DNA of 64,000 bases from a virus: UHGV virus genome UHGV-0091736; one strand, 5' to 3'. A program made the translations under genes and the position numbers. Numbering within the stretch: position 1 is the stretch's first letter; each line of letters opens with the position of its first letter. The notes beneath the pieces were generated by a model, which was not told the origin of the DNA, searched no databases, and saw only the letters and a list, made by a program, of their open reading frames with translations. Shown in pieces: positions 3,610 to 63,337 of this stretch.

Positions 3610-3618
3610 TATACATTA
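3610..3618 (-). promoter_or_regulatory. TAATGTATA promoter-like element (phage sigma-type consensus)
   Basis: Exact TAATGTATA on the minus strand, upstream of the 3573 start. Confidence 0.5.
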
Positions 3619-3629
3619 TAAGTTACTGT

Positions 3630-5348
3630 TTAAGCTTTCTTTTCCATTGCTTTAACAATCGCCTTACAGAAACCAGAACGAACAATATCATCTGATTCAC
3701 CATCTACAATCTCAGCAAACTCATACAGATCATGTTCATCAATAAAGTTAGTAGCCCAAGTAAGACCACTCTCACGACCACGCATATCATGCTGGTTAGT
3801 ATCACCCATGCAGAACAGCTGAGAGGTTTCTCCCAATCGAGTCATGATTGAGAAGGCTTCATCTTTAGTTGTGTTCTGGAACTCATCCACGATAACAATG
3901 GCATCATTGAAAGAGCGACCACGGAGATATTCCAGAGGTACAAATTCAATGTTACCATTTCCGATTTGGCATTCATAGAACCCCTTACCATATCGCTGAG
4001 TAATAACATCAATGATAGGCATCAGGTATGGTTCAAACTTCTCACGCATCCCCCCCGGAAGTAACCCAAGAGAGTTACCCATGCCGACCGAAGGGCGACT
4101 CAGAATGATCTTCTGAATCTTACCACTCTTCAGTGCATCAATAACTGTGGAAGTGATTACAAAGGTCTTACCACAGTTACCTGTCACGAAAATGTTATCA
4201 TCTCGACGGAGCAACAGAGCACCTGTTGAGGTTGTAAAGCAATATTTAAAACCATCCTCCGTCTTCATCTTTGTGATCACAGCTTTCCCAGATTGTGGGT
4301 TGTTTGGGGTAATACTGATATGTGTCTGTTTAGAGAAATAAACACGATACTCTAGAGATTTACGAGTATATCCACCATACTCCCGACCAACTCTGTCGTA
4401 AGTTATGATAGATGATTTGTAACCACACTGCATTCCTACAAACTGGATATAGTCTGCATCATCTTTATCGGAAGTAAAGAAAGGTGGTAGTCTATTTCCT
4501 TGTAGGGCAAAACCCCCGTCCCAGAATTTAATCTCATCAAAGATGATTTTAGCATCACTCTTGTTACACAAAGGCCAGTCTTTATACCTTTTAGTCGCAC
4601 CTAGAAGAGAGAAAGATATTACATGAAACCCTGTATCATCTGACTTTTCTGAGTAATCTAAATGGAGAGTATCCAATAACTCTTTGAGTCGAGAAATCTT
4701 CCTCTCTTTCTTTAATCTGAAGACGAATCGCGAGGTGGACTCTGTTTCCAAGTGGGCATCAGCCTTGATGGCAACATGAAGACGTAATTCAGGTTCAGAT
4801 AGACCTAAACTTTTCCCTGAAACAAAGTTGGATGTAGTTTTAATTAGACCCTCAAACCCTATCTTCTTCTTGTGGTGCCTTGAAAGAAGATCAGATACCT
4901 TGATTTTGTTCGCTTTGTCTTTATCTCCCTTACGATAATAAACGACATTATGGTCATCACATAACGCCTGAGATATCCCACGGTATGTTTTAAACAAGTT
5001 CAACTCTTTACACTCTTGTTTAATATAAGCTACAGGTTTTTCTAAATGAGACTCTCCTGTGGTTAAGTTTACTGCTGTTATTAAATCACCTTCCACATAG
5101 TCAGAAATCTTTTTCCATCCAAACTCTGAGAGAAACTCGGTATCCTTATCAACACAGCCCGCAGGAGCGTCTGTGAACACAACTTGTTTAGTCTTAATAG
5201 CATTGAGTAGCTCAGACTGAAACTGGTTCTGAGGGACTACAGGCTTTGCTAAAACCACCTCTTCATACTCTCGCTTACCCTTACGAGTAACAAGTGCTTC
5301 CCGACGAAGGTCTTTCCGTGATTCTTTCCTTGATTGACGACGACTCAT
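3630..5348 (-). CDS. phoH: PhoH-like ATPase precursor containing an intein
   Basis: Walker A is split as ..DAPAG | intein | CGKTFV... The C-terminal part has ILSRP, LLPG, IVIVDEFQN (Walker B) and GD..Q, as in PhoH. Confidence 0.8.
   Translation of the reverse strand: MSRRQSRKESRKDLRREALVTRKGKREYEEVVLAKPVVPQNQFQSELLNAIKTKQVVFTDAPAGCVDKDTEFLSEFGWKKISDYVEGDLITAVNLTTGESHLEKPVAYIKQECKELNLFKTYRGISQALCDDHNVVYYRKGDKDKANKIKVSDLLSRHHKKKIGFEGLIKTTSNFVSGKSLGLSEPELRLHVAIKADAHLETESTSRFVFRLKKERKISRLKELLDTLHLDYSEKSDDTGFHVISFSLLGATKRYKDWPLCNKSDAKIIFDEIKFWDGGFALQGNRLPPFFTSDKDDADYIQFVGMQCGYKSSIITYDRVGREYGGYTRKSLEYRVYFSKQTHISITPNNPQSGKAVITKMKTEDGFKYCFTTSTGALLLRRDDNIFVTGNCGKTFVITSTVIDALKSGKIQKIILSRPSVGMGNSLGLLPGGMREKFEPYLMPIIDVITQRYGKGFYECQIGNGNIEFVPLEYLRGRSFNDAIVIVDEFQNTTKDEAFSIMTRLGETSQLFCMGDTNQHDMRGRESGLTWATNFIDEHDLYEFAEIVDGESDDIVRSGFCKAIVKAMEKKA
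4176..5156 (-). mobile_element. Intein (327 aa) in the PhoH P-loop, with degenerate LAGLIDADG-like endonuclease region
   Basis: Starts CVDKDTEFL (block A-like) and ends ..NIFVTGN followed by +1 Cys. Excision restores APAGCGKT. Candidate dodecapeptides are LHVAIKADAHL and FDEIKFWDGGF. Confidence 0.7.
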
Positions 5349-27781: not shown

Positions 27782-27858
27782 TGGCGCACCGTGTAGGACT
27801 CCAACCTACAACCTATTTCTTAGAAGGAAATTGCTCTCTGCAATTGAGCTAACGGCGC
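27782..27858 (-). tRNA. tRNA-Arg (anticodon UCU), CCA encoded
   Basis: Hand-folded cloverleaf: GCGCCGT/ACGGTGC acceptor, GCTC/GAGC D stem, ATTTC-CTTCTAA-GAAAT anticodon arm, GTAGG-TTGGAGT-CCTAC T arm, G, CCA. 77 nt. Confidence 0.85.
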
Positions 27859-36333: not shown

Positions 36334-37206
36334 TTACTTATTAGCCTTAATGCAGTTGGCTAGATTAACGTGAACAGTATAAACAGCATTATCAGCGTTA
36401 TTATAAACGGTAGTGGCGATCATCGACTCCTTAACCGGACCATAACTCACTAGATTGGTTACAGCTTTAACGTCTTCATAACGTTGTACAGTACCAAATG
36501 TCACCATATCCGCATCATTATCAGTGCGCTTAAGCACCAAATCATTGTTAGGCTGATTATCTAGTGTTTTAGACTGAAAGAGAACGCCTTCATTTGTTAC
36601 GTTGCTAAACTTCATTTTTAAGACAATAGTATTGCCGTCACTATCCGCACCGTTGCAAATCATCCAACCTTTATTGATGGAACTAGAGAAGACACTAGCC
36701 GCATCAGTTGCAGGAGCAGGACTAGCAACAGCCTTATCAGAAAGAGATGTGACCAGTGCACTAACACCGATCGCTGCAACCAGTGCATAACTTGCCAGAT
36801 TAACAGACTTCATAATCTTACTTGCAACAGTAGGCTTGATTGGCTGTTTCTTGTTTTTCTTGTTCCATGCTTCAACCATGACAGACAAGCGGGATAATTC
36901 AGCTTTCACATCACGGCATGACTCAGGCCAATCTTTCTGATTCCAGCTATCTAAATTTGCTTGAATGTAGCAATTAATAGCGTCCTGCATATCGGTAAAA
37001 CCGTTCTCTTTGAACGTGCTTTCATCTTCACACTGTAAAGCGTTCGCAGTAGAGTTAATGATCAAGCAAGCCAGCATTACAGAGTTTTTGAATCCTTTAC
37101 GTGCACTTTCGTTTTCCATCCACGCATCAGGACTACCAACGGTTAAGCCTAAAGATGAAAGGTTTTCGTTTGCTTTGTTCAAGTGGTTAATTGCTACTTT
37201 AGACAT
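36334..37206 (-). CDS. hypothetical protein with central transmembrane helix (290 aa)
   Basis: ORF track. SYALVAAIGVSALVTSL hydrophobic stretch. First gene of the minus arm. Confidence 0.6.
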   Translation of the reverse strand: MSKVAINHLNKANENLSSLGLTVGSPDAWMENESARKGFKNSVMLACLIINSTANALQCEDESTFKENGFTDMQDAINCYIQANLDSWNQKDWPESCRDVKAELSRLSVMVEAWNKKNKKQPIKPTVASKIMKSVNLASYALVAAIGVSALVTSLSDKAVASPAPATDAASVFSSSINKGWMICNGADSDGNTIVLKMKFSNVTNEGVLFQSKTLDNQPNNDLVLKRTDNDADMVTFGTVQRYEDVKAVTNLVSYGPVKESMIATTVYNNADNAVYTVHVNLANCIKANK

Positions 37207-37250
37207 TTGATATTCCTTATGGTTGATGAAAACTACAAACTACAATCGCA

Positions 37251-37278
37251 ACTATATAATAAAGGAAAAGGCTGTCAA
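37251..37278 (-). promoter_or_regulatory. sigma70 promoter (TTGACA-N16-TATAGT) for the leftward early operon
   Basis: -35 at 37273-37278 and -10 at 37251-37256 on the minus strand, about 40 nt upstream of the 37206 ATG. Confidence 0.65.
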
Positions 37279-37424
37279 CCATTTATTTTCTAACTTTCCT
37301 ATAACTTACTGAAAACTAAAGGAATTTAATTTACTAAACTTTCCATACTCAGAGAATCAGCTTACTGGATATTGTTACTTTATAACACTAATCCTACGGG
37401 TAACAGACCAACAGACCAGGGCAA

Positions 37425-37849
37425 ACGGGGAACACACAACCGCAGGATAGACCACGGGGAAACATAGCCAGATAGTGCGGTAGTAATATACCACTTAAAT
37501 AATTAGTTAACTATTAATAGCATTACTCAAACATCAAAGACCATTCGCTACGCTCATGCACGCTGAAAAAGAAAAGAATAAAAAGAATATAATAACCATC
37601 AAACATAATCTTTCCACTTAATTAATACATATATCATTATTGCACTCATAATAACAACTATTGAAACTATTTACACTCAAACTATGGGGGATGGGATGGT
37701 TACTATACGGTATTATTAGACCTGTTATTATCACGCCTTAACAGAGTCTAGCCTTTCATCCACTCAGTAAAGGGGAACTAAATAAACGGGTAGGTAATGT
37801 AATAGATGACATATACGGGGAAAGAATAACGGGGAGTAGGCACGGGGAA
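37425..37849 (+). repeat. ACGGGGAA iteron-like repeats (at least 5 copies) flanking an AT-rich core (about 37490-37680)
   Basis: Copies at 37425, 37454, 37815, 37829 (ACGGGGAG) and 37842, plus AAGGGGAA at 37770. Confidence 0.6.
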
Positions 37850-38000
37850 GGTTAGAACGTGGGAGGAGGTGTAAAGGCATTGCCAATAACCCTTTTTTAA
37901 ATGAGGACTCCCCCTTTTTAGGAATTCGTCGCAGAGCGCCTAGCCCCACTCGGTCAAATCAGAATTTTAAACTCTTATATATAAGGTTGAAAGAGAACTT

Positions 38001-38165
38001 ATGTGGAAAATTAAGTTAATCATTAAGCAATTCAAATGTGATCATGAGTACTATCGGATACGCAAAGCTTACGGGGATGAAAGAGTTCACTCCCTTTATA
38101 AGTCCACTTGGAGATGTAGTGAATGTGGTAAGCTTAAGCACAGCACATGGATGGATAGGCCTTAA
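38001..38165 (+). CDS. small zinc-ribbon protein (54 aa)
   Basis: Hand-translated MWKIKLIIKQFKCDHEYY..WRCSECGKLKH... Not in the ORF track because it is under 60 aa. Confidence 0.35.
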   Translation: MWKIKLIIKQFKCDHEYYRIRKAYGDERVHSLYKSTWRCSECGKLKHSTWMDRP

Positions 38166-38395
38166 CGTGACATGGCCTTTATGGGGGTGCCTTAATGTGA
38201 AGTCCCTTTTATGTTTTAACTTTTATCAGAGGGATGTATGACTGAAGATGAATATGGTAGCTTCTCTGAAGAAGACTACGAAAATGAATACAGGTATACT
38301 CACGGGTGTTAATGTGAGGTGGCCTTTACGGGTTAGATAGCCATCAAAGATGACGATATGACTAGCCCTTTATACTTTACTCAGAGGACAAAAGT

Positions 38396-39524: not shown

Positions 39525-39533
39525 TAATGTAGA
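39525..39533 (+). promoter_or_regulatory. TAATGTAGA promoter-like element
   Basis: 8/9 match to TAATGTATA, 12 nt before the 39545 ATG region. Confidence 0.4.
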
Positions 39534-39544
39534 AGGAGTATAAA

Positions 39545-40018
39545 ATGTTTGGAGAAAACGGAGAACTCACGCCTGCACAGGTAGCTGAGATTACAGGAAG
39601 ATTACCCGGAGTAACGGAAGAACTTGAAGGCCGTGGTATGAACCCAAGCAATGGGAAGTTTCAAAAGGGGAATAAATTCGGACGACCCAAAGGTAGTAGA
39701 GGTAAACTGACACAATTAATGTTGGACCGTGTTGCTGCAAGTCATTTGTCTCCTGATGAAGTGTTAATTCAAATTTACGAAGATCCTAATATTCCACCTG
39801 ATCTTAGATTCAAGGCTGCATCAAAAGTTGCAGATCTGGTATATCCTAAGGCGGCCTCCGTTGAAGTTAAGATTGAGGAAGAGAATGTAATCAACGAAGA
39901 ATCATTGAATGCACAAATCAAGGACTTCTTGACTGGAGCACTTGGTATCGACGTTATGCCTCCAGAAGAAGACAACTCTGAGGACGCTGAAAAGGGGGAG
40001 GAAGCGGACGAGAGTTAA
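39545..40018 (+). CDS. putative small terminase subunit
   Basis: Located immediately upstream of terL. GNKFGRPKGSRGK basic motif, acidic tail. Confidence 0.45.
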   Translation: MFGENGELTPAQVAEITGRLPGVTEELEGRGMNPSNGKFQKGNKFGRPKGSRGKLTQLMLDRVAASHLSPDEVLIQIYEDPNIPPDLRFKAASKVADLVYPKAASVEVKIEEENVINEESLNAQIKDFLTGALGIDVMPPEEDNSEDAEKGEEADES

Positions 40019-40087
40019 GTAAAGGAAAGAAGGGGAGGTTCTTTGACGAAGGGACTTTCCCTTTTCTATTTTTAAACTGGAGGAAGT

Positions 40088-40690
40088 ATGTCACTAGATA
40101 AACAAATTTATGAAGCTCTAACTGGTAACAATCTTAGTGTAGATGAAAAGAAAGCACTATTGAATATGTTGAAAGAGCGTGACCAATGGAGGAAGTATAA
40201 TAGGATTTTGTCTTTCAAGGCGTATGACTTCCAAAAGAAATTTTATGCAGCAGGATTGAAGCATAGGTTCAGGTTTCTCTGTGCGGCTAACCGAGTTGGG
40301 AAAAGTTACAGTGAAGCGTACGAATTCGCATGCCACGTTACCGGAAGATATCCAACATGGTGGACCGGTCATAAGTTTAAGAGGCCAATACTTGCGTGGG
40401 CTGTAGGGATTACAGGGGACTCAACAAGGAAAGTATTGCAAAAAGAATTATTTGGTACACCAATTGGAAAGGACACTAATCTGCTAGGTACTGGAGTTAT
40501 TCCACGAGATGCAATAGTAATAGATACTATAGAAAGGGATGGTAATAAGCTACAGATAGTACAGATTAAGCACCAGAATGAAAGGGGTGAGTTTGATGGA
40601 TTAAGTACGTTAGAATTTCGATCAACACAACAGGGTGAACATACACTGATGGGTGCTACTGTTGATTATATATGGCTGGATGAAGAGGAT
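40088..40690 (+). CDS. terL: terminase large subunit, exon 1 (ATPase through Walker B)
   Basis: CAANRVGKS (Walker A-like) and VDYIWLDEED (Walker B). The ORF then stops after 2 more codons. Confidence 0.8.
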
Positions 40691-40784
40691 TGTATATAAC
40701 ATAGCTAGAAGTGTTGGTCCTCTATAAACTCGGTGAATTGCTGGAACCTCTGACCCTTAAGTGGAAGACAATCAGCAGCGAAGA

Positions 40785-40793
40785 TAATGTATA
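40785..40793 (+). promoter_or_regulatory. TAATGTATA promoter-like element inside the terL intron, upstream of the HNH ORF
   Basis: Exact consensus, 85 nt before the 40878 start. Confidence 0.45.
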
Positions 40794-40877
40794 ACTTACT
40801 CATGATACATTATAACGTTCAACGACTATCGAAAGCATAGCCCGTATGGGTGAAGAAGCAAGTAGAGTAGATACCAA

Positions 40878-41456
40878 GTGGTATCGAAGTGCCGAGCAAA
40901 ACTAAGGAGTGATACATTGGGTAGACCTAACAAATCATTAGATTCAACCAAAACATGTTCAGTGTGCTCTGTAACAAAAGACATAGAATCTTTTGCAATA
41001 AGAACAAGAGCAATATCCACTGGAGAGGTTAGAATCTACCGTAAGTCTCAATGCAAAGAGTGCATGGCTGAGATGAGAAGGGATTGGGGTAAGAATAATC
41101 CAGATAAGATTCGTGAGAATAATAATTCTCCAAATAAGAGAGCTTGCGATAATGCAAGACGGGCTGGATTAGAAACTGCTTCTATTATCAGAGATGATGA
41201 GTATAATAAATTTGTTATGGAAGAAATGTATGAACTTCGAAATCTTAGAACAAAGGAAACTGGATTTCAATGGCATGTAGATCACATAATCCCTTTAAAA
41301 GGTAATAACGTATGTGGTTTTCATGTCTGGTATAACTTGCAGGTAGTTCCTGCTGTTTTCAACCTATCTAAGAGTAATAGTTTTGATGATATAGTCTGCT
41401 CTGCATGGAAACATGCAGCTGGAGAAATCCGGGATGAGATTAACGATCTTGTCTGA
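40878..41456 (+). CDS. HNH homing endonuclease (intron-encoded)
   Basis: [37 protein letters not shown]-terminal Cys pairs CSVC..CKEC. Confidence 0.85.
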
Positions 41457-41464
41457 ACAACACG

Positions 41465-42403
41465 CCATATGAGTCTATGGCTATATTCGCACAGTGCGTC
41501 ACACGTACACTCACAACTAAAGGTCTAGTTACAATTACAGCTACACCAGAGAACGGTTTAACTGAACTGGTAGATAAATTTATGAAAGGTGAAGGGGATG
41601 AGAACACAGGTTCTCTATATTTCCAGAATGCTTCTTGGTGGGATGCTCATGCAGACCTAGGTGGACATATCACTGACCAAGATATAAAAGATATGACTGA
41701 AGGTATTCCAGCGTGGCAGTTAGAGATGCGTTCGAAAGGTATGCCATTGTTAGGAAGTGGTTTGATATATGATGTATCGGATGACACAATTAAATGTGAA
41801 CCATTCGAAATTCCTGATACGTGGAAACGTGTCTGTGCAATTGATATTGGTATTGATCACCCAACTGCTGCTGTTTGGACAGCTTACGATGCAAACACGG
41901 ATACTGTCTATGTTTACGACTCATATAAAGAAGGTGGCTTTACTCCAGTGTATCATGCTCCAGCTATTAATGGTCGTGGTCAGTGGATTCCTGTCATCCT
42001 ACCGCATGATGCGGACAATATTGAGAAAGGTAGTGGATCATCTGTTGCTCAATTCTATAAGAATGCAGGAGTTAATGTACAGAGTGAGACCTTCTACAAC
42101 AAAATTGGAATGGATGGTAAAAAGAACTTCTTTGTAGAACCCGGAATCACAGATATCCGAGAAAGAATGATGAGTGGACGCTTTAAAATCTTTAACACAG
42201 CTGCTAACGCTAAGCTATTCGAAGAGAAAGCTAGATATCACCGCAAGGTTGGTAAGATTATTAAAGAACATGATGACTTAATGGATGCAATGCGCTATTC
42301 AGCGTGCTCTGTTACACATCGTGGTCGCTCTAAGCATGACGTTAGCTACGGAAGTGCTTCTCTGTATGAGGCAAACGTAAGCAGATGGAATCAGAGTTAC
42401 TAA
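41465..42403 (+). CDS. terL: terminase large subunit, exon 2 (ATPase C-motif and nuclease domain)
   Basis: ..TRTLTTKGLVTITATPENG.. (coupling motif) and CAIDIGIDHP.. (RNase H-like nuclease). Confidence 0.8.
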   Translation, partial: PYESMAIFAQCVTRTLTTKGLVTITATPENGLTELVDKFMKGEGDENTGSLYFQNASWWDAHADLGGHITDQDIKDMTEGIPAWQLEMRSKGMPLLGSGLIYDVSDDTIKCEPFEIPDTWKRVCAIDIGIDHPTAAVWTAYDANTDTVYVYDSYKEGGFTPVYHAPAINGRGQWIPVILPHDADNIEKGSGSSVAQFYKNAGVNVQSETFYNKIGMDGKKNFFVEPGITDIRERMMSGRFKIFNTAANAKLFEEKARYHRKVGKIIKEHDDLMDAMRYSACSVTHRGRSKHDVSYGSASLYEANVSRWNQSY

Positions 42404-47720: not shown

Positions 47721-47729
47721 TAATGTATA
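47721..47729 (+). promoter_or_regulatory. TAATGTATA promoter-like element
   Basis: Exact consensus, 34 nt before the 47763 ATG and just after the terminator. Confidence 0.55.
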
Positions 47730-48524: not shown

Positions 48525-51500
48525 ATGATCAGTTATAACAACTCAGCACCTACATCTGTTAACAACGTAGGTCAGTTTGGTGCTACGGAAGGTTCTATTG
48601 GTGCTTATAAGTCAGCAGCTGAGTATGCGGCTGATGCTAAATATTGGGCGCTTCTCTCACAGACTAAGTATTCATCTGTAGAAGATATTCTAGCCGAAGT
48701 GGAACGTCTTTATGCTCAAGGACAGTTACTTGAGAGTGATATTAAACAGCTTAGAGATGACTTTGAAGCACAGGAACAAGTACTCTTAGGTTTGATTCAA
48801 TCCACAGGGACTGCAATTGACAATACCAATGCAGCTACAGAACTATCTAGAGAAGCTACACAAGAAGTACTTGCTCAGTTAGATATCATCTCTAACATGA
48901 CAGTTCAGACTGCACTACTCCCTCCGGGAAGCTTAGCAACTGGTTCCTATGATAACTCAACAGGCGTCTTTACTTTTGGTATTCCAGAAGGGCAACCCGG
49001 CCGTGATGGTACTGATGGAACAGTTAGCGATATTGGAAATGTTCCCGTTGGTGTTCCAGTTGTTGATGACTATGGATTCTATGTAGACAAGGACGACGGT
49101 GGGTTATACAGAGCTAATATGTCAGATATTGCCAATCTTGTTCCTTCTATCAGATCTATCTCTATCAATGGCGGCGCTGAGCAAACAGGTTCAGTGGTTT
49201 TTGATTCTGTCTCCACATTCAATGGACGTAAGGGTGCTGTAGTTCCTGCTACTGGAGACTACACAGCTGCTCAAGTGGGAGCTTTTAGTGTAACTAATAA
49301 CCTATCCGAAATAACCGACACAAGTGCAGCTATTACAAATATTGGACTCGCTGAGTATGGGATTGGTAGCCCTACCTTAACCACAGTGGAGGCTCTGGAC
49401 TGGCAAACATTTAATTTTGTCAATGGAGGTAACTATTCAACATTAATGTCGAATATTACAAATGCCCCTGCTGAGATAGCATATCCTGCCAATTTTGGGT
49501 TATATATTGAAGTCATTGGCGTACTTACAGGAGGAGGTGAGGTACGAGTGGTGCCACGGACAAACAATAATAACTACTACTCAGTTTTCTCTGTAAGGTG
49601 GACTGGAATAGTTGGTTCCCGAGTATTTACAGTACGAGAAGAGCTGTCTTCCGCTCGCCCTGTGACTATCTCTCAGGGTGGCACTGGATCTACTTCAGCA
49701 GAGAATGCTCGACTAGCTCTAGTTGCTGCAAAGAGTGGAGATAACTCTGATATCACCTCTATGACTAACAAGGTTACTTTCACACAACCTCCAGTGGTTC
49801 CCGATGCTGTAGATGATAATAATGCAGTTACTTTGAGACAATTGCGTAATAGTAGCGATTCTGATGGAGTCATAGCTAACAAACAAGCCATTGCCCGTAA
49901 GTTTGGTGTTGAGCAATCAGAGGTTGTTTACTTCTCCGCAGGAGCTGCACTAAGCGGCTATAAAGTCATCTATGACAAAGAGTCACAGAAGGCTTATTCT
50001 TTACCTACTGACCTTGATTCAGATGTTACTGCTATTAGTCTTAGTACTGCTGGGGTGCTAGTTCATTCTGCTGGTAATGTGGACTTGGGTGGATTAGCAG
50101 TTACTCGTGAAGAGTATGTTACTTTACCAGGTTCATTTTCTACCGGGGTAACTGTTAATACTAAGAACGAGTTGGTTGTGTTTACTGATGGTAAATATCG
50201 TTGGGAAGGTACTTTACCTAAAGTGGTTGCTGCTGGTTCAACTCCTGCATCAACGGGGGGTGTTGGTTCTGGTGCTTGGGTCAGTGTTGGTGTTATTTCA
50301 CTAAGAACAACGATTTCTTCCACTACAGGTTCCACACTAGTTGGATATAAATATAAGTTGGAAAATTCTGCAAGTATCCGTAATGTTGCTGATGTTCTAA
50401 ATGAACGGGTCAGTCTTTGGGATTTCCACTGTGACTCATCGGGTAATATTATTCAGCCGGGACCTTCCATTGACAGTCGCCCGTATTTGCAGAATGCAAT
50501 TGATTTTGTTAGTTCTGTTGGTGGGGGTACTTTACTCATTCCTCAGGGTTACACTTGGTATCTGAATAGCATTAGCACAGGCCCCGTCTCTGGGCATAGC
50601 GGACTCATCCAGCTTAAGAGCAATGTAAGCATCAAGCTGGACGGCACAGTTAAAGTAGGTCCTGCCTTAGCTAACAGTTCCTTCCAAGTCTTCGTGGGAT
50701 TCACTGATGGTAATCCAGCTAACTCTGGTAACCTAGATAACTGCCATATATTTGGTGAAGGTAGTATTGACTTCGGGGGTTATGACTTCGCTGACGCAGG
50801 TCACTTGCGTAATGGTATCGCGTTTGGTAAGGGGTACAACTGTTCAGTAGACGGTATTACGTTCGTTAACGGTGACGTTACATGGGGTATAACTCTTGGA
50901 TGGAACGGTTACGGTTCAGACTCGCACGTCCGCAACTGCCGCTTCATTAACCTTATCCAGAGTGAAGTTAACCGTGACCATAGTACTGTTTACGTTAACT
51001 GCCCATTCAGTGGAGTTAGCAACTGCACATTCCGTGCAAGCTCTGCGCGTGCCAAGGTAATTGCGTGTACGGTGGAACTGCATCAGCAGAACACCTACTA
51101 CCGCAACAGTATCATCTCAGGTTATACACGTGGATGTTATGTAGCCCTGCATGGTGCTGAGTCTGCTGGTGCAGGTGCCTATCTGTATAATGCCGAAGTA
51201 TCTGGGGTCATCGGAGATATCTCTGGTCAGGCTGTCATATTAGCGGCAGGCCCAGATGATACAGCTACTACATACATTAATGGTCTTACGGTATCTAACT
51301 GTCGATTCACTGCTGGAAACCACCCGGGTATGTGCAGCTTCATCGACTTCTTCCAAGACGATAACTCTGACTCAAGTCAGTACCGCATCAATCACGTTAC
51401 GGTTAAAGGGTGCAGCTTCATTGTCGATAGGGGCCGTTCTCTTAGTGCAGCCATTACCCTGAACGGTAGCATTCAAGGCATCACCTTCCAGGATAACTTC

Positions 51501-52091
51501 TTCGATGTTAAGCAGGCTATGGTATCAGAACTCCCTAGCGGACGCACTGTACAGTTAGAACGCTTTAACTGGGATGCCAGCAATATCATCGGCGACGATA
51601 ACACTGGTACTCGTACTGGCCTGAACCTGTTTGAGACTCAGAGAGTATCCAGTATGTCGCGCTGTAACATTCAGGTGCATATGCGACAGCCTAGTTCGGA
51701 CCTGTACTGCTTTATGTATTTCAGGCCAAATGATACAACATTCAGTGACTGTACCTTTGAGGTATTGCCATATAATTGGTCTTGTACATCTGGTAATCCT
51801 ATATTTTTTGGCAGTACAGGCGTCCCAGCGTCTGGAATGCGCGTCAGGTTTCCTAAACAAATTTCGTTCACGTTGTCAGCCGGGAGTAACGTCCAACGCG
51901 TTACTGCTTCGGGAAGTTATGCTTGGGTGGCCCGGGCGGATGCTCTTGACCCCCGCAGTATTTCTGGGCAATTTGATGCTCCCGCATCATATACGGGGGC
52001 AAATAACGGGCAGTTGGTAGGTCTAGGCTGGCAGCTTGACGGTATAGAGCATGTTTATGATCATAATGTGTATCTTCAGAATTTCAACTGA
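48525..52091 (+). CDS. tail fiber/tailspike (1188 aa) with probable beta-helix (depolymerase-like) C-terminal half
   Basis: Collagen-like GQPGRDGTDG. The C-terminal half shows repetitive Gly/Asn/Ser-rich strands typical of right-handed beta-helices. Confidence 0.6.
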   Translation: MISYNNSAPTSVNNVGQFGATEGSIGAYKSAAEYAADAKYWALLSQTKYSSVEDILAEVERLYAQGQLLESDIKQLRDDFEAQEQVLLGLIQSTGTAIDNTNAATELSREATQEVLAQLDIISNMTVQTALLPPGSLATGSYDNSTGVFTFGIPEGQPGRDGTDGTVSDIGNVPVGVPVVDDYGFYVDKDDGGLYRANMSDIANLVPSIRSISINGGAEQTGSVVFDSVSTFNGRKGAVVPATGDYTAAQVGAFSVTNNLSEITDTSAAITNIGLAEYGIGSPTLTTVEALDWQTFNFVNGGNYSTLMSNITNAPAEIAYPANFGLYIEVIGVLTGGGEVRVVPRTNNNNYYSVFSVRWTGIVGSRVFTVREELSSARPVTISQGGTGSTSAENARLALVAAKSGDNSDITSMTNKVTFTQPPVVPDAVDDNNAVTLRQLRNSSDSDGVIANKQAIARKFGVEQSEVVYFSAGAALSGYKVIYDKESQKAYSLPTDLDSDVTAISLSTAGVLVHSAGNVDLGGLAVTREEYVTLPGSFSTGVTVNTKNELVVFTDGKYRWEGTLPKVVAAGSTPASTGGVGSGAWVSVGVISLRTTISSTTGSTLVGYKYKLENSASIRNVADVLNERVSLWDFHCDSSGNIIQPGPSIDSRPYLQNAIDFVSSVGGGTLLIPQGYTWYLNSISTGPVSGHSGLIQLKSNVSIKLDGTVKVGPALANSSFQVFVGFTDGNPANSGNLDNCHIFGEGSIDFGGYDFADAGHLRNGIAFGKGYNCSVDGITFVNGDVTWGITLGWNGYGSDSHVRNCRFINLIQSEVNRDHSTVYVNCPFSGVSNCTFRASSARAKVIACTVELHQQNTYYRNSIISGYTRGCYVALHGAESAGAGAYLYNAEVSGVIGDISGQAVILAAGPDDTATTYINGLTVSNCRFTAGNHPGMCSFIDFFQDDNSDSSQYRINHVTVKGCSFIVDRGRSLSAAITLNGSIQGITFQDNFFDVKQAMVSELPSGRTVQLERFNWDASNIIGDDNTGTRTGLNLFETQRVSSMSRCNIQVHMRQPSSDLYCFMYFRPNDTTFSDCTFEVLPYNWSCTSGNPIFFGSTGVPASGMRVRFPKQISFTLSAGSNVQRVTASGSYAWVARADALDPRSISGQFDAPASYTGANNGQLVGLGWQLDGIEHVYDHNVYLQNFN

Positions 52092-52101
52092 TAATATAAA
52101 A

Positions 52102-52123
52102 ACCCCGCTTCGGCGGGGGTTTA
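52102..52123 (+). terminator. putative terminator (weak U-tract)
   Basis: CCCCGC-UUCG-GCGGGG then GUUUAG. Confidence 0.4.
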
Positions 52124-52186
52124 GTAGTAAGTGTGTTCAAGAAGTAATGAAACTAGTATATCACAAAAGGAATACACATAGGAGAT

Positions 52187-52411
52187 ATGAAGATGAAAAT
52201 GATGAAACAAATCAGTTATGGATTAGCTTGTGTTGCTACTGGTTTTGCTGTGTCAGTGGCTGTTCCTGTTAACGCAGTGCATCCTCTGGCAACGCAACCT
52301 GCACCAGTTGAGAAATTGAGTGCATCCTGTAAGCAGCGTACAATTCAAAATAATCTTGTGGTTATTTGTCCGGACTCTGATTCTAGTGCTCTGAGAAATA
52401 TGCTTCAGTAA
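52187..52411 (+). CDS. small secreted protein (signal peptide ..VPVNA|VHP), lysis-region
   Basis: MKMKMMKQISYGLACVATGFAVSVAVPVNA. Adjacent to the endolysin. Confidence 0.5.
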   Translation: MKMKMMKQISYGLACVATGFAVSVAVPVNAVHPLATQPAPVEKLSASCKQRTIQNNLVVICPDSDSSALRNMLQ

Positions 52412-52441
52412 TTTAGGGCTGGCTAGAAAGGGAGGTGAAAG

Positions 52442-52933
52442 ATGGATAATGTCGCATTGCCGCCGATACAACGGAGCTTAAGCCCAGAAGGGATGGAATT
52501 CATCATGAAGCATGAAGGCATGAGAACTCGTGCTTACCAAGATTCCGCAGGTATCTGGACAATATGTGTTGGGGCTACGCGCGATATGAATGGGTATCCA
52601 GTTAGACAAGGATTAACGTATTCTATAGAGGATTGTCTAGCTCTGCTAGATAGAGACACACAAGACTCTGTTCGTGCTACTCAAAAGAACATAAAGGTTC
52701 CTTTACTAATGCATGAGTTTGATGCACTCACTTCTTTCAACTTCAATGTTGGCAGTGGGGCTTTGAGCACATCTAAGTTAAGGAAGGTTATCAATGGAGA
52801 AGTGAAAGGAGATGTTTATTCAGAATTTCTTCGTTGGGATAAAATCACGGTTAAAGGGGAGAAACGGAGAAGTCAGGGTCTTCATAACAGAAGGGTTGCA
52901 GAAGCCGATCTTTATACCGAAGCTAAATATTAA
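52442..52933 (+). CDS. endolysin, GH24 lysozyme-like
   Basis: ..MKHEGMRTRAYQDSAGIWTICVG.. (E/D/T catalytic pattern). Confidence 0.8.
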   Translation: MDNVALPPIQRSLSPEGMEFIMKHEGMRTRAYQDSAGIWTICVGATRDMNGYPVRQGLTYSIEDCLALLDRDTQDSVRATQKNIKVPLLMHEFDALTSFNFNVGSGALSTSKLRKVINGEVKGDVYSEFLRWDKITVKGEKRRSQGLHNRRVAEADLYTEAKY

Positions 52934-52945
52934 TGGAGGTGCCTC

Positions 52946-53749
52946 TTGGCTATTGAAACTAATGCGGTAGTAGTTACCGACTTAAACCCTCTCTATCCTC
53001 GTGATAGAGATTATATTTATGAGGGTGCAGCTCAGCTGCGCCTAGTTAAACAGGTGTTACAAAACACTTTTCCTAATCTGACAGAGCCTATGACTGTTGA
53101 TTCTGATACTCTAGCCGCCATCTCTGACAAAATCTCTTTTGCTGGAGATTATATGGACGTTGGCGGTCTTATGATTAAGAATGGTACAGCGGGTACTGGT
53201 AATAATGACTTTACCACCAAAGCTCAAATGGAATCTTTTATGCTCAACTGGATGCAAAACAAGATCTATAGGGTTGGCTCTTATTACATCACTGAGGAAG
53301 ACATTAACCCGGGAGATTCTACATCTTTAGGATTCGGTATATGGACAGCTGTTACTGGTGTTATCATGGGTGCTGGGGTTGTGAACCCTGATGGAACAGT
53401 TCCTAATGCTCAACGTGTGGAATTTACTGCTGGTGCTACCGGTGGTCGTGTTTACAATACAGTTAAGACAGAGAACCTGCCTTTAACTACAATCTCTGGT
53501 TCTAGTTTCTCTCTTTCTAATTACACACACTCCCACACAACAACGTTTGGACGGGGGGATGCTAGTGGTCATAACAGCTCACCTAACTGGTACAGCCCGG
53601 GTAGTGGATATTCTGCTGTTACAAGTTCTGATACTCACACCCACTCTATCACGGGCAGTGCAACATTTGGTTATGATGACGTATCTCGTCAACCTATAAA
53701 TACGTTACCACCTTTCCGTGCAGCATATATCTGGAGACGTATTAGTTAA
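52946..53749 (+). CDS. tail fiber-like protein with HxH repeats (TTG start)
   Basis: NYTHSHTTT..DTHTHSITG. GGAGGTG SD 5 nt upstream of the TTG. Confidence 0.55.
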   Translation: MAIETNAVVVTDLNPLYPRDRDYIYEGAAQLRLVKQVLQNTFPNLTEPMTVDSDTLAAISDKISFAGDYMDVGGLMIKNGTAGTGNNDFTTKAQMESFMLNWMQNKIYRVGSYYITEEDINPGDSTSLGFGIWTAVTGVIMGAGVVNPDGTVPNAQRVEFTAGATGGRVYNTVKTENLPLTTISGSSFSLSNYTHSHTTTFGRGDASGHNSSPNWYSPGSGYSAVTSSDTHTHSITGSATFGYDDVSRQPINTLPPFRAAYIWRRIS

Positions 53750-53758
53750 GGAGGAAGT

Positions 53759-56716
53759 ATGGCTCTCTACCCAATAAAATCTTTGGGTGCGGTTGGTGTT
53801 ATTGCCGACCAATCTCCTACGGATCTGGCTCCTAATGCATTTACCAATGCAATCAACGCTCGGTTTGTAGAACAACGTGTTTTTAAAACGGGGGGCTCTG
53901 CCCCTCTTTCTTACGTCGAGAGTGATAAAGAAATAAAACCATTATCATTCACTTCAATGCCTTTTGACTACTTCAGTGCTAACAATAGTTTCTTACTGGT
54001 AGGTACAGATAAGAGTATTTTTAGATTAAATAATGAATCTATGGTTGATGTTAGTCGAAGAGTGGCTACAGTCACCAAAAAAGCCGTGTCTTATATTAAG
54101 ATAAATCCTGTATTAACAGAGATTGTCCCTAAAGAAACATCTGTCATTATGAATTTTAATGAAAGCAAGGTTCTCGAGGTATCTCTTCTTCCAGAGGGTG
54201 TTACTACTCCATCTCTTGTGTGGGAGGTTAGTAACCCTTCTTATGGCTCAATACTAGTTGATCCTGATGACAGTAAGAAAGCTACATTGAGTGTCTTGTC
54301 TAATGAGGGAAGTTTCACTGTCACTGTCTCCAATGAAGATGAATCTGTGACTGCCAGTATTTCTATAAAGGTAGTTGATTCAGATTCTGGTATCTTCCTT
54401 AATCGAGACTCTGTCCAACTCCGGAAAGGTGGAACAACCACACTTACAGCAACAACAAGTAAGACCCCTCTGACGTGGACTTCTTCTAACCCAGCTATTA
54501 TCTCTGTATCACCTAATGGGGATACTACTACGGCTGTACTTACTGCTCAGGGGGTTGGAAACGCTCTTATTACTGTAAGCAACGGTTCCAAAACCTCAGA
54601 ATGCTCTGTTATCGTTATTAATCAGATTGACAGTATCTCTTTGAGCCAAACAGATTTACAAATTAACCGAGGGACGTCTTATGTCCTATACGCTAGTCTA
54701 ACTCCATCAAATGCTGCAAATCAGAAGATAACTTGGACTTCTTCTAACCCCAATATTGCCACTGTTTCAGGAACGGGTCTTCAAGGCACTGTTTCTGGTC
54801 TCACAGCCGGGTATACAGTTATAACAGCAACTACTGAAGAAGGTGAAAGGACAGCCACCTGTACTGTTAGGGTTGATTTATCAAGCAGGATGCTTTTTGC
54901 TGCTGCATCAGTTCCTTCTGAAGAACCAAGTTCTATGAATTCAGATATTGACACTTCGGCTATGTCAGAGGGAAACTCTTTTTATGACTACTCTATGGTT
55001 GATGGTGTCGAAGCCTATTCCATAAACGAAGTCATGTCAAGATCTACTCAACTCGAAACACTAACTTTAGACATTGTGGATACTGAAATTAATGTTGGAG
55101 ACGAGCTAGTGATAACCGCAACAGCGGCCCCTGAAGGGGATTACCTTTATACTTGGGTTGTTGATCAACCGGGGTATATATCTTCAACTTCTACTACAGA
55201 TTCTTCTTTTACTTTAACTGCTATTAAGACTGGTAAGGTGAAAATAACCTGCACTGCTAGTCAAGTGGCCCAGAGGGATTATGAAGCTTTTGAGGAGTAC
55301 CCTTGGTATAATACGATTATTTCTAACTGCGCTGTATTCACTACTCACTATGAAACTCCTCAGGTAAAAGAGTTTGCCTCTGAGTATTTCACAGATCTTC
55401 CGGGGTGGGGAGAACAGACGATAGTTGATGCTGATGGGAACCCATCTGTTGTGAAGTACAATTGGAAATGTGAAAGGGTTCGTGCTTTTAACAATCGCCT
55501 ATTTGCTCTTAATATGCGAGAGTCTAATGCATCAGGGGTTACCACTCATTACCCTCTTCGCCTTCGCTGGTCTAACTATGCTAATGAGAATAAGGCACCT
55601 ACCTTATGGGATGATTTTGCTTACGATAGGTATGTGACTTCAGACTTAGCGGCAAATGTTGTAGGACAAACTGAGGCTCTAGAAAATGGATATGCTGGGT
55701 ATATAGACTTAGCTGATTCAAACGGAAGTTTAGTTGAAGTTCTTCCTCTTAAGGATTACCTGTTTATCTATACAGAGTTTGAAACTTACATCGGATCCCC
55801 AACTAACAACACATATCAGCCTTTAATGTTCAAGAAGCTTTTCAACGATTCTGGAATCTTAGCACCTGAGTGCGTAGTTGAAGTTGAGAGTGGTCATTTT
55901 GTGGTTACTCAGAACGATGTTATTCTACACAATGGAGCAACCAAGAAATCTATTGCATCAAACAGGGTTAAGAATCTTCTCATTAATGAGGTGTGCTTAG
56001 TAAACCCTTTGGCTACTAAAGTTCATCTTCACCAAGACAAGAAGGAAGTGTGGATTCTTTATGTAGGACCCGGAGAACCTGCTGGGAGCTTTGCTTGTAC
56101 GAAAGCCGCTGTATGGAACTATGAGTTTGATACGTGGTCTTTCCGTACAATCCCATTCTCTCATTGTATTGGTTTAGTCGATCCTCCTACTTTAGAGAAA
56201 GGTCCTACTTGGGTTGATTTCCAAGAGTACACTTGGGATGACCCTTCAATCAGTGAACTTGTGTGGAGAAAGGATTCTACTAACTTCCGTCAGAGAGTTA
56301 CTGTAGTAGGTTCTTGGATGAAAGGTTTTTACCAAGTGGACATAGGTCCTTATGACTACTCTTATGATAGGCTGAATGATATTGTTGTCAAAAAGCCTCT
56401 AGAGATGAGACTGGAAAGAACTGGTATAGATTTTGACAACGTAACTAATGAATGGAATCAAAAGCACATAAACCGATTCCGTCCACAAGTAACAGGGTCA
56501 GGTACCTATATATTTCAAGCTGGTGGTAGTCAGTATTCTGATCAGGAAGATAGACATATTCACAGTGAAAAGTCTTATACAATTGGTGTGGACAGACATG
56601 TAGGTGTCCGACTGAACCATCCGTATCTATTCTATAATGTTATAGATAATGATGTTAACAGTAATGCAGCTATCAATGGTCTAACTATTGAGTTTGCTGT
56701 TGGCGGGCGAAGATAA
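53759..56716 (+). CDS. large virion/tail protein with tandem Big_2 Ig-like domains (985 aa)
   Basis: Repeated ..L..G.T..LTA...P.....V.W.SSNP..A.V...G.. units around aa 120-370. Confidence 0.6.
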   Translation: MALYPIKSLGAVGVIADQSPTDLAPNAFTNAINARFVEQRVFKTGGSAPLSYVESDKEIKPLSFTSMPFDYFSANNSFLLVGTDKSIFRLNNESMVDVSRRVATVTKKAVSYIKINPVLTEIVPKETSVIMNFNESKVLEVSLLPEGVTTPSLVWEVSNPSYGSILVDPDDSKKATLSVLSNEGSFTVTVSNEDESVTASISIKVVDSDSGIFLNRDSVQLRKGGTTTLTATTSKTPLTWTSSNPAIISVSPNGDTTTAVLTAQGVGNALITVSNGSKTSECSVIVINQIDSISLSQTDLQINRGTSYVLYASLTPSNAANQKITWTSSNPNIATVSGTGLQGTVSGLTAGYTVITATTEEGERTATCTVRVDLSSRMLFAAASVPSEEPSSMNSDIDTSAMSEGNSFYDYSMVDGVEAYSINEVMSRSTQLETLTLDIVDTEINVGDELVITATAAPEGDYLYTWVVDQPGYISSTSTTDSSFTLTAIKTGKVKITCTASQVAQRDYEAFEEYPWYNTIISNCAVFTTHYETPQVKEFASEYFTDLPGWGEQTIVDADGNPSVVKYNWKCERVRAFNNRLFALNMRESNASGVTTHYPLRLRWSNYANENKAPTLWDDFAYDRYVTSDLAANVVGQTEALENGYAGYIDLADSNGSLVEVLPLKDYLFIYTEFETYIGSPTNNTYQPLMFKKLFNDSGILAPECVVEVESGHFVVTQNDVILHNGATKKSIASNRVKNLLINEVCLVNPLATKVHLHQDKKEVWILYVGPGEPAGSFACTKAAVWNYEFDTWSFRTIPFSHCIGLVDPPTLEKGPTWVDFQEYTWDDPSISELVWRKDSTNFRQRVTVVGSWMKGFYQVDIGPYDYSYDRLNDIVVKKPLEMRLERTGIDFDNVTNEWNQKHINRFRPQVTGSGTYIFQAGGSQYSDQEDRHIHSEKSYTIGVDRHVGVRLNHPYLFYNVIDNDVNSNAAINGLTIEFAVGGRR

Positions 56717-63292: not shown

Positions 63293-63337
63293 GTCCTGCC
63301 TTCTATAATGTATATAGGGGGTAGGACATTTTTATTT
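63293..63337 (+). terminator. Rho-independent terminator whose loop contains TAATGTATA
   Basis: GUCCUGCC-N19-GGGUAGGAC then AUUUUUAUUU. Loop spans 63301-63319. Confidence 0.55.
63306..63314 (+). promoter_or_regulatory. TAATGTATA promoter-like element
   Basis: Exact consensus, 39 nt before the 63353 ATG. Confidence 0.5.

Follow-up and report, generated by a model that had tools for sequence, protein, structure and literature searches.

Group I introns with HNH or GIY-YIG nuclease genes in essential phage genes are classical. Here we describe an element of this kind at positions 40691–41464 of the virus genome UHGV-0091736, a stretch of 64,000 nucleotides (nt) that was analysed as a whole and is called the window below. 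We consider it highly probable that this element is a mobile group I intron in terL, the gene of the large terminase subunit, an account that takes in splicing, homing by an HNH nuclease and a promoter for the phage sigma factor gp36. Its identity as a group I intron is supported by a covariance-model match, by an exact insertion that leaves the reading frame intact on removal, by compensatory changes in five copies and by the splice-site nucleotides; splicing, the activity and specificity of the nuclease, homing and promoter use we infer from sequence.

The td intron of T4 and TuIa with its nuclease I-TevI, a member of subgroup IA2, comes from phages of the same host species range. It has the paired elements P7.1 and P7.2, as the window intron does, and its 3′ domain (P7′-P9-P9.1-P9.2, down to the final bases) shares about 85% identity with that of the window intron; over the last ~78 nt, from P7′ to the 3′ end, identity to T-even td introns is 84–88%. 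The td open reading frame (ORF) likewise runs with its 3′ end into the structured core, where its translation interferes with splicing; the intron has a phage-specific promoter of its own, and nuclease-initiated homing is accompanied by co-conversion of flanking exon sequence (PMC2988022). The two elements differ in the gene interrupted (td versus terL), in the nuclease gene (a GIY-YIG ORF in P6a of td, an HNH ORF in P8 of the window intron), in P2, which td has and the window intron lacks, and in the promoter, which is a T4 late promoter in td and a gp36 sigma motif here. Over the 5′ two-thirds of the window intron, no nucleotide similarity to td is detectable.

Group I introns in TerL genes are described from Bastillevirinae such as SIOphi and phiAGATE, some of them with HNH genes, and their splicing has been shown in vitro and/or in vivo (PMC11878797). 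These are myoviruses of Gram-positive hosts with an unrelated TerL lineage, other insertion sites, other nuclease families and no promoter tie to a phage sigma factor. The introns in coliphage DNA polymerase genes (PhAPEC5/7, vB_EcoM_4HA13) resemble the window element in being group I introns of E. coli phages with HNH ORFs, and their 3′ ends are 81–89% identical to it over ~78 nt; the PhAPEC5 element is annotated as an intron with an HNH nuclease. They differ in their host gene, in their phage families (N4-like and others) and in their ORF proteins, which are not close relatives. The nearest case among deposited phages is Privateervirus (Proteus phage 3H10_20 / vB_PMG_YP1; contig L006 is a further example), which has a related terminase/portal module with an SU10-type portal, an HNH protein that is 55% identical, and an intron in the corresponding Walker B segment of terL. 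Its group I intron lies at 589–1307 in Proteus phage 3H10_20 (L012, NC_070976; Rfam 73 bits) and at 2709–3470 in L006. It is inserted 9 nt further upstream, between WLD and EED rather than between WLDEED and P, its ribozyme scaffold is another one, and its ORF follows the core near the 3′ end instead of sitting in P8 and has no read-through tail. A 55%-identical HNH protein in another scaffold 9 nt away places the same nuclease family in two ribozymes at neighbouring positions of one target.

The window represents a phiEco32-like Kuravirus and is collinear with phiEco32 over most of the genome in a whole-window comparison. The terL-portal region shows ~93% DNA identity to phiEco32 and to some 90 other E. 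coli Kuraviruses, and an SU10-type portal ORF flanks terL in the window. The interrupted gene is organized as follows.

40088–40690, plus strand: terL exon 1, 201 codons ending in VDYIWLDEED; Pfam Terminase_6N, E 5e-10; collinear with phiEco32 gp7.
40691–41464, plus strand: group I intron, subgroup IA, td-like, 774 nt; RF00028; exact gap against phiEco32; covariation in five copies.
40697–40699, plus strand: stop codon UAA that closes the exon-1 frame after two intron codons, as read from the sequence.
41464, plus strand: terminal (omega) G of the intron.
41465–42403, plus strand: terL exon 2, starting PYESMAIF, nuclease domain; Pfam Terminase_6C, E 3e-14.

Exon 1 contains Walker A (AANRVGKS) and Walker B (YIWLDE). 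Exon 2 is ~98% identical to phiEco32 at the nucleotide level and matches the nuclease domain of the P22 large terminase (4DKW, E 4e-31). The insertion point, YIWLDE-ED/P, lies within the ATPase domain, two residues past the Walker B/catalytic-glutamate motif, which fits the position just after Walker B given by a first-pass annotation of this DNA. The intron-less terL of phiEco32 reads GACGAAGAAGAT followed directly by CCATACGAG, and the window reads GATGAAGAGGAT, then the 774 nt, then CCATATGAG. In a BLAST comparison with the complete phiEco32 genome, the window has 774 nt between the aligned blocks at the junction GAT/CCA, where phiEco32 has 0 nt, and the boundaries 40691 and 41464 cannot be slid because the bases differ on the two sides of each junction. 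Joining 40690 to 41465 restores a 513-aa TerL that is 98.8% identical to phiEco32 TerL over its full length with no gaps, in line with the in-frame ligation proposed earlier. The predicted spliced protein contains YIWLDEEDPYESMAIF at the junction, and YIWLDEEDPYESMAIFAQ is a candidate junction peptide. The splice-site nucleotides are canonical, with U at −1 and a terminal G.

Translation of unspliced exon 1 would end in DEEDCI. In four homologues the exon-1 frame likewise stops within 0–1 codons of the intron, and the early UAA keeps ribosomes out of the ribozyme. An intein, a frameshift or read-through was considered for the insert and rejected, since it has stops in the terL frame from its third codon on.

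The Rfam model RF00028 (Intron_gpI) has a gathering score of 50 bits, and the window was scanned at this threshold and then in E-value mode. The latter scan, the kind of covariance-model search that the first-pass annotation had named as a check, matches 40672–41418 to the full model (positions 1–253) with 45.0 bits, E 4.7e-10 for the local region and 3.1e-8 for the whole window. We searched for proteins related to the inserted one, fetched their contigs and aligned the intron cores without the ORF (alignment A3, MAFFT). On each of four distinct metagenomic phage contigs, a homologue of the protein lies between two terL fragments, with an SU10-type portal gene behind them.

L002: protein 93% identical to the window HNH protein.
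L003: protein 65% identical to the window HNH protein.
L007: protein 65% identical to the window HNH protein.
L010: protein 59% identical to the window HNH protein.

All five copies have GAGGAT (WLDEED) directly before the insert, whose last base is a G, and CC(A/T)T, or CC(A/U)U in the RNA, directly after it. The homologous introns of L003 and L007, at the same terL site, pass the RF00028 gathering score with 63.7 and 51.5 bits.

A secondary structure drawn from the window sequence consists of 55 modelled pairs, for which 500 shuffles and 3′ partners slid by 1–3 columns served as controls. Across the five copies 97.4% of the cells form standard pairs, and 16 pairs are changed on both sides, compared with 7.7 ± 1.8 in the shuffles, none of which (0/500) reaches this number. 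With slid partners, 31–42% of the cells are paired and at most 4 pairs are changed on both sides. Compensatory changes occur in P3, P5, P6a, P9 and P9.1 and at every one of the six P9.2 pairs; P4 and P7 do not vary and hence carry no covariation evidence for or against the structure. P7.1, P7.2 and P8 were misaligned by MAFFT and were checked by hand. The elements are these.

40684–40723, plus strand: P1, exon AGAGGAU (40684–40690) with the internal guide GUCCUCU (40717–40723), 26-nt loop.
40729–40733, plus strand: P3 5′ strand, pairing with 40892–40896; one compensatory CG to UA change.
40739–40744 / 40772–40777, plus strand: P4, invariant in five copies.
40749–40751 / 40766–40768, plus strand: P5, two compensatory positions.
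40778–40818, plus strand: P6 (GC/GU) and P6a, the latter 9 bp (40784–40792 / 40805–40813) with three pairs changed on both sides.
40817–40829, plus strand: R element, GUUCAACGACUAU.
40824–40828, plus strand: P7 5′ strand GACUA, pairing with 41392–41396; invariant in five copies; fits the Rfam consensus GUUCAaAGACUA.
~40835–40859, plus strand: P7.1, core CCC/GGG at 40841–40850; hairpin in all five copies.
40870–40875 / 40880–40885, plus strand: P7.2, GAUACC / GGUAUC; hairpin in all five copies.
40892–40896, plus strand: P3 3′ strand CCGAG, pairing with 40729–40733.
40897–40904 / 41378–41385, plus strand: P8, 5′ strand CAAAACUA and 3′ strand UAGUUUUG.
41378–41396, plus strand: P8 3′ strand, J8/7 and P7 3′ strand (UAGUC, 41392–41396), with the S element GAUAUAGUC at 41388–41396.
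41401–41407 / 41412–41418, plus strand: P9, CUGCAUG-GAAA-CAUGCAG with a GAAA loop; two pairs changed on both sides.
41419–41423 / 41428–41432, plus strand: P9.1, GAAA loop; two pairs changed on both sides.
41433–41438 / 41448–41453, plus strand: P9.2, loop AUUAACGAU; all six pairs changed on both sides.

P1 places a U40690·G40717 pair at the splice site, and six of its pairs persist throughout the five copies, with a single change, from G-C to G-U. In P8, AAAACU/AGUUUU is replaced by AAAUUU/AAAUUU in L007, a compensatory change. The 62-nt segment 40829–40890 between P7 and P3′ holds two hairpins, P7.1 and P7.2, in the same place in all five copies and with differing sequences: GAUACC/GGUAUC, GGUAUC/GAUACC (L002), CACCC/GGGUG (L003, L010) and GGGUAU/AUACCC. 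P7.1 and P7.2 are a mark of subgroup IA, to which their presence assigns the window intron. The parts from which the first-pass annotation had recognized a group I intron in terL are all present: GUCCUC (40717–40722) with GAGGAU (40685–40690) and its U·G pair, the R and S elements, the P9 hairpin at 41401–41418, G41464, and the motif TAATGTATA discussed below. Its diagnosis is borne out by the RF00028 match, the exact 774-nt insertion, the restored frame and the covariation. Its P7 of 6 bp is to be shortened, with five conserved pairs (GACUA/UAGUC) and a sixth, U40829-A41391, that forms only in the window and in L002.

Some features of the ribozyme count against its assignment. The gathering-threshold Rfam scan of the whole window listed no matches, and the window intron falls 5 bits short of the gathering score. 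P2 is absent. P10 is weak, with 5/6 pairs, a mismatch at +2 and no evident counterpart in L002, and we do not claim it. The shortfall in score can be put down to the ORF of ~470 nt that sits as an insertion in P8.

This ORF is the second component of the element.

40917–41456, plus strand: HNH homing-endonuclease ORF, 179 aa from TTG 40917, in the P8 loop.

The longest frame starts at GTG 40878, inside P7.2 (192 aa), and is the one given in the first-pass annotation (40878–41456). That ORF is present and does extend through the S box as described there, but its most likely start, judged from the upstream sequence and the homologues, is TTG 40917, which would yield a protein of 179 aa rather than 192. 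The TTG is preceded by an AAGGAG Shine-Dalgarno sequence (40904–40909) with a 7-nt spacer and aligns with an ATG in L007 and L010 and a TTG in L002 and L003; both ORF start and Shine-Dalgarno sequence are conserved among the copies. At its other end the ORF reads on through P8′, J8/7, P7′, P9, P9.1 and P9.2 to the UGA at 41454–41456, a stretch that takes up its last ~26 codons. Stops vary among the homologues: L003 has a UAA in the P9.2 loop and L007 one in the P9 tetraloop, and a related Proteus phage protein ends directly after KSNKF. These differing stop positions indicate that the last ~23 residues are read-through of ribozyme sequence rather than a conserved domain. Since the ORF frame overlaps P8′-P9.2, a given RNA molecule can either be translated over the ORF or fold into the ribozyme, but not both at once. 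A T4-like RNA structure hiding the HNH Shine-Dalgarno sequence was not found on folding 40800–40960 (z 0.19), where the Shine-Dalgarno sequence is unpaired; its only upstream complement is 4 bp with the guide sequence, and no such hiding is claimed.

The inserted protein matches PHROG 1035 (endonuclease VII, E 4.4e-20) and PHROG 2255 (HNH endonuclease, E 4e-5). Nine columns are invariant in 17 homologues (V121, D122, H123, P126, G134, N140, N149, K152 and N154). The C-terminal part of the HNH motif reads H.WYNLQ..P...N.SK.N, and a CxxC...CxxC segment precedes it. These features point to an HNH (beta-beta-alpha-Me, HNH/HNN) nuclease with a zinc-ribbon-like N-terminal region. Precomputed PF01844/PF14279 assignments exist for three distant homologues. 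The Pfam HNH model PF01844 gives no match to the window protein, and homologues reach only E 0.017–0.29. A phmmer search of the protein against the Protein Data Bank (PDB) found nothing, a profile of the 17 homologues produced only non-significant PDB matches (e.g. the ZRANB3 HNH domain, E 0.27), and Foldseek of an AlphaFold model against the PDB returned no meaningful match. In IMG/VR, a scan with the HNH protein retrieved distant relatives only, at most 58% identical over part of the protein and none of them in a terL, and a scan with the P3-P4 core motif retrieved 46 contigs, in all of which the motif belongs to a different intron in a different gene, in most cases one with a P2 hairpin.

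The exon sequence next to the intron is divergent on one side.

40265–40687, plus strand: divergent exon-1 patch abutting the intron, with 99 mismatches in 423 nt against phiEco32 (23%).

On either side of it, from 39545 to 40264 and throughout exon 2, the mismatch rate against phiEco32 is about 1 per 50–100 nt (1–2%). Exon 1 has 100 mismatches to phiEco32 in total, 87 of them at third codon positions, and the best identity of the patch among 50,697 deposited phage records is 80%. Over the last ~230 nt of the patch (from ~40460), the window has 8 mismatches to the intron-bearing L002, compared with 52 between phiEco32 and L002. Within the patch lies the A-to-G substitution at −4 (GAAGAT to GAGGAT) that is required for pairing with guide C40719. 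The 423-nt patch looks like a co-conversion tract of homing, agreeing with the trace that nuclease-initiated homing leaves in flanking exons (PMC2988022). It is also in keeping with nuclease genes being reportedly found at boundaries of genetic exchange. Our inference is that a terL about 23% diverged was the source from which a phiEco32-like backbone acquired the intron, and that the conversion tract lies almost wholly on the 5′ side. The same patch could instead stem from ordinary mosaic recombination that ended at the intron by chance, which would count against this history.

The third component concerns expression of the nuclease. [quoted passage not shown] One such motif lies within the intron.

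40785–40793, plus strand: TAATGTATA, gp36-sigma promoter core, in the 5′ arm of P6a; predicted start ~40800–40804, in the P6a loop.

The first-pass annotation had likened this motif to the late promoters of T4 intron endonucleases. The analogy is apt, in that T4 intron nucleases are expressed from T4 middle or late promoters inside their introns (PMC2988022), and the motif is the published gp36 core. The 9-mer is exact and agrees with 9 of 11 positions of the extended consensus. Four exact copies occur in the window, compared with 0.61 expected, and none of 100 shuffles reaches four. The other three lie at 3610–3618 (minus strand), 47721–47729 (plus strand) and 63306–63314 (plus strand), all intergenic, and a copy with one mismatch, TAATGTAGA, at 39525–39533 (plus strand), also intergenic, precedes terS and is conserved in phiEco32 and L003. 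The other gp36-type sites stand 25–40 nt before a Shine-Dalgarno sequence and ATG, and two of them follow terminator-like hairpins. Two late gp36-type sites share AAGACCTA ~22 nt upstream of the motif. The −37G/−34A contacts reported for P68 were considered as a promoter test; they are present at the intron site and absent at two other exact sites, so they are not diagnostic and were not used.

We regard the chances that TAATGTATA at 40785 works as a gp36 promoter as roughly balanced. A reading that falls just short of this, and that we take seriously, is that the intron splices and the motif is merely P6a stem sequence, with unspliced terL pre-mRNA or the excised intron serving as the mRNA for the HNH protein. 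Several observations pull in this direction and weigh against the promoter. The motif doubles as a structural arm, making 9 perfect pairs with 40805–40813 in a P6a helix that is conserved. Although on the correct strand, it stands 124 nt from the HNH start, compared with 25–40 nt at the other three sites. It is exact in L002 and absent from the introns of L007 and L010, and in L003 it reads AATGGATA (AATGGA), although the phage of L003 has the same promoter upstream of terS. Finally, the TAATGTAGA site at 39525 already makes terL a late gene. On the other hand, an exact 9-mer in the 226 nt before the ORF is expected by chance only ~1e-3 times (shuffle rate), the other three exact copies all resemble real promoters, L002 retains the motif exactly despite a differing P6a loop, L003 retains −14A, −13A, −12T and −11G, the four bases contacted by gp36, and the T4 intron nucleases use the same arrangement. 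It is only tentatively that we propose an intron adapted to the transcription of its host phage, in which the P6a DNA doubles as a gp36 promoter, a separate non-splicing transcript serves the HNH gene late in infection and the full-length terL RNA splices, and in which, taken with the Privateervirus case, the nuclease moves between scaffolds while keeping its Walker B target.

Two further explanations depart from a mobile, splicing intron. It is unlikely, in our view, that the ribozyme is intact and the HNH gene a decaying passenger, in an immobile intron inherited only vertically. Defunct intron nucleases are known, such as I-TevIII of T4 (PMC2988022), the window protein does not reach the Pfam HNH model, and its C-terminal tail is variable read-through of ribozyme sequence. 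Yet the ORF is intact, its Shine-Dalgarno sequence and start are conserved in five copies diverged to 57–65% identity, all columns of the catalytic motif are invariant across the 17 homologues, and the sharp flank of 23% divergence indicates transfer after the backbone had come within 1–2% of phiEco32. Far less probable still is a terL split without splicing by a free-standing HNH cassette into two genes for a two-piece terminase. It would accord with GenBank, where the element of Proteus phage 3H10_20 is annotated solely as two "terminase large subunit" coding sequences with an HNH gene between them, and exon 2 does contain an in-frame ATG at 41477. This ATG has no Shine-Dalgarno sequence, whereas the terL start and the inserted ORF both have one, and the break falls inside the ATPase domain, two residues past Walker B. 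The ribozyme core is full length with compensatory changes, the splice sites carry U at −1 and a terminal G, and the insertion is exact to the nucleotide; a split gene would also leave ~230 nt of conserved, structured non-coding RNA unexplained.

For the mobile intron that we favour, the following course of events is proposed. terL would be transcribed late, and ribosomes on exon 1 would halt at the UAA two codons into the intron. The RNA would fold into P1, formed by exon GAGGAU and guide GUCCUC, and P3-P9.2, and would be spliced by two guanosine-initiated transesterifications, at U40690 and G41464. Ligation would join WLDEED to PYESM and give the normal 513-aa TerL. The HNH nuclease most likely cuts or nicks the intron-less terL of co-infecting relatives near the conserved site, and repair would bring in the intron and, with it, neighbouring exon sequence; the 423-nt exon-1 patch is the putative footprint of such an event. 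At least some of the HNH mRNA probably comes from the putative gp36 promoter TAATGTATA in the P6a DNA. A transcript from ~40800 would carry the ORF without the 5′ portion P1-P6a and could not splice.

The window holds other insertions. A second group I intron is found at 11935–12554 (minus strand; RF00028, 48.6 bits, E 2.7e-9), a 620-nt insertion opposite no gap in phiEco32, inside a DNA primase/helicase gene (the phi32_75 homologue), with an HNH_3 ORF at 12113–12448. One flank is divergent there as well, the exon side 9527–11934 being 86.8% identical to phiEco32 and 12555–14334 98.0%. The PhoH-like ATPase gene at 3630–5348 (minus strand) has an in-frame insertion at 4177–5152, in the Walker A loop, that makes it ~326 codons longer than phiEco32 gp60. 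The sequence reads DAPAG followed by CVDKDTEF at the start of the insertion and NIFVTGN followed by CGKTF at its end; with a Cys at the start and Asn followed by Cys at the end, the insertion resembles an intein and is not an intron. The window therefore contains two group I introns and one likely intein, and not three introns as had been counted in the first-pass annotation. On L007, a further group I intron fragment (1–702), truncated by the contig end and scoring 34.8 bits with Rfam, lies upstream of the terL exon-1 fragment, as does the ORF behind it, which weakly matches GIY-YIG; the terL of this phage may therefore hold two introns.

Elsewhere, the tail-fibre region 48714–55088 is the part least conserved with phiEco32. 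Its first 3.4 kb (48714–52104) have no phiEco32 match, the next 2.8 kb (52105–54880) are 73% identical, and the region looks like a swapped host-range module. Window positions 36334–37924 correspond to 75944–77537 of the phiEco32 record and 37750–38253 to 1–504, with an overlap of 175 nt; the window thus spans the ends of that record and is permuted, or joined through a terminal repeat, relative to it. A tRNA at 27785–27858 (minus strand; 60 bits, gathering score 29), which corresponds to a tRNA-Arg annotated in phiEco32, was seen in the E-value-mode Rfam scan and missed in the gathering-threshold scan of the same window, from which it follows that the default scan filtered out real matches.

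We found no paper that mentions introns in a Kuravirus or phiEco32-like terL, and the window insertion is absent from all 50,697 deposited phage records. The terL intron is a known kind of selfish element that is new for this phage group, and it leaves the understanding of group I introns unchanged. In practice, terL here and in the related metagenomic and Proteus phages is to be annotated as one spliced gene, not as two fragments and a stray HNH gene. The locus, where a foreign-looking exon patch ends at the insertion site to the nucleotide, offers what appears to be a clear case in nature of an intron homing among closely related phages. The nuclease, predicted to target a strongly conserved part of the terminase, might play a role when co-infecting phages compete, or serve in Kuravirus genome engineering. 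The element may also use a phage-specific sigma promoter, as T4 introns use T4 late promoters. If true, the gp36-promoter reading would separate two mutually exclusive processes, translation of the ORF and splicing, and, taken with the Privateervirus case, would be evidence of a nuclease gene that changes ribozyme scaffold but retains its Walker B target.

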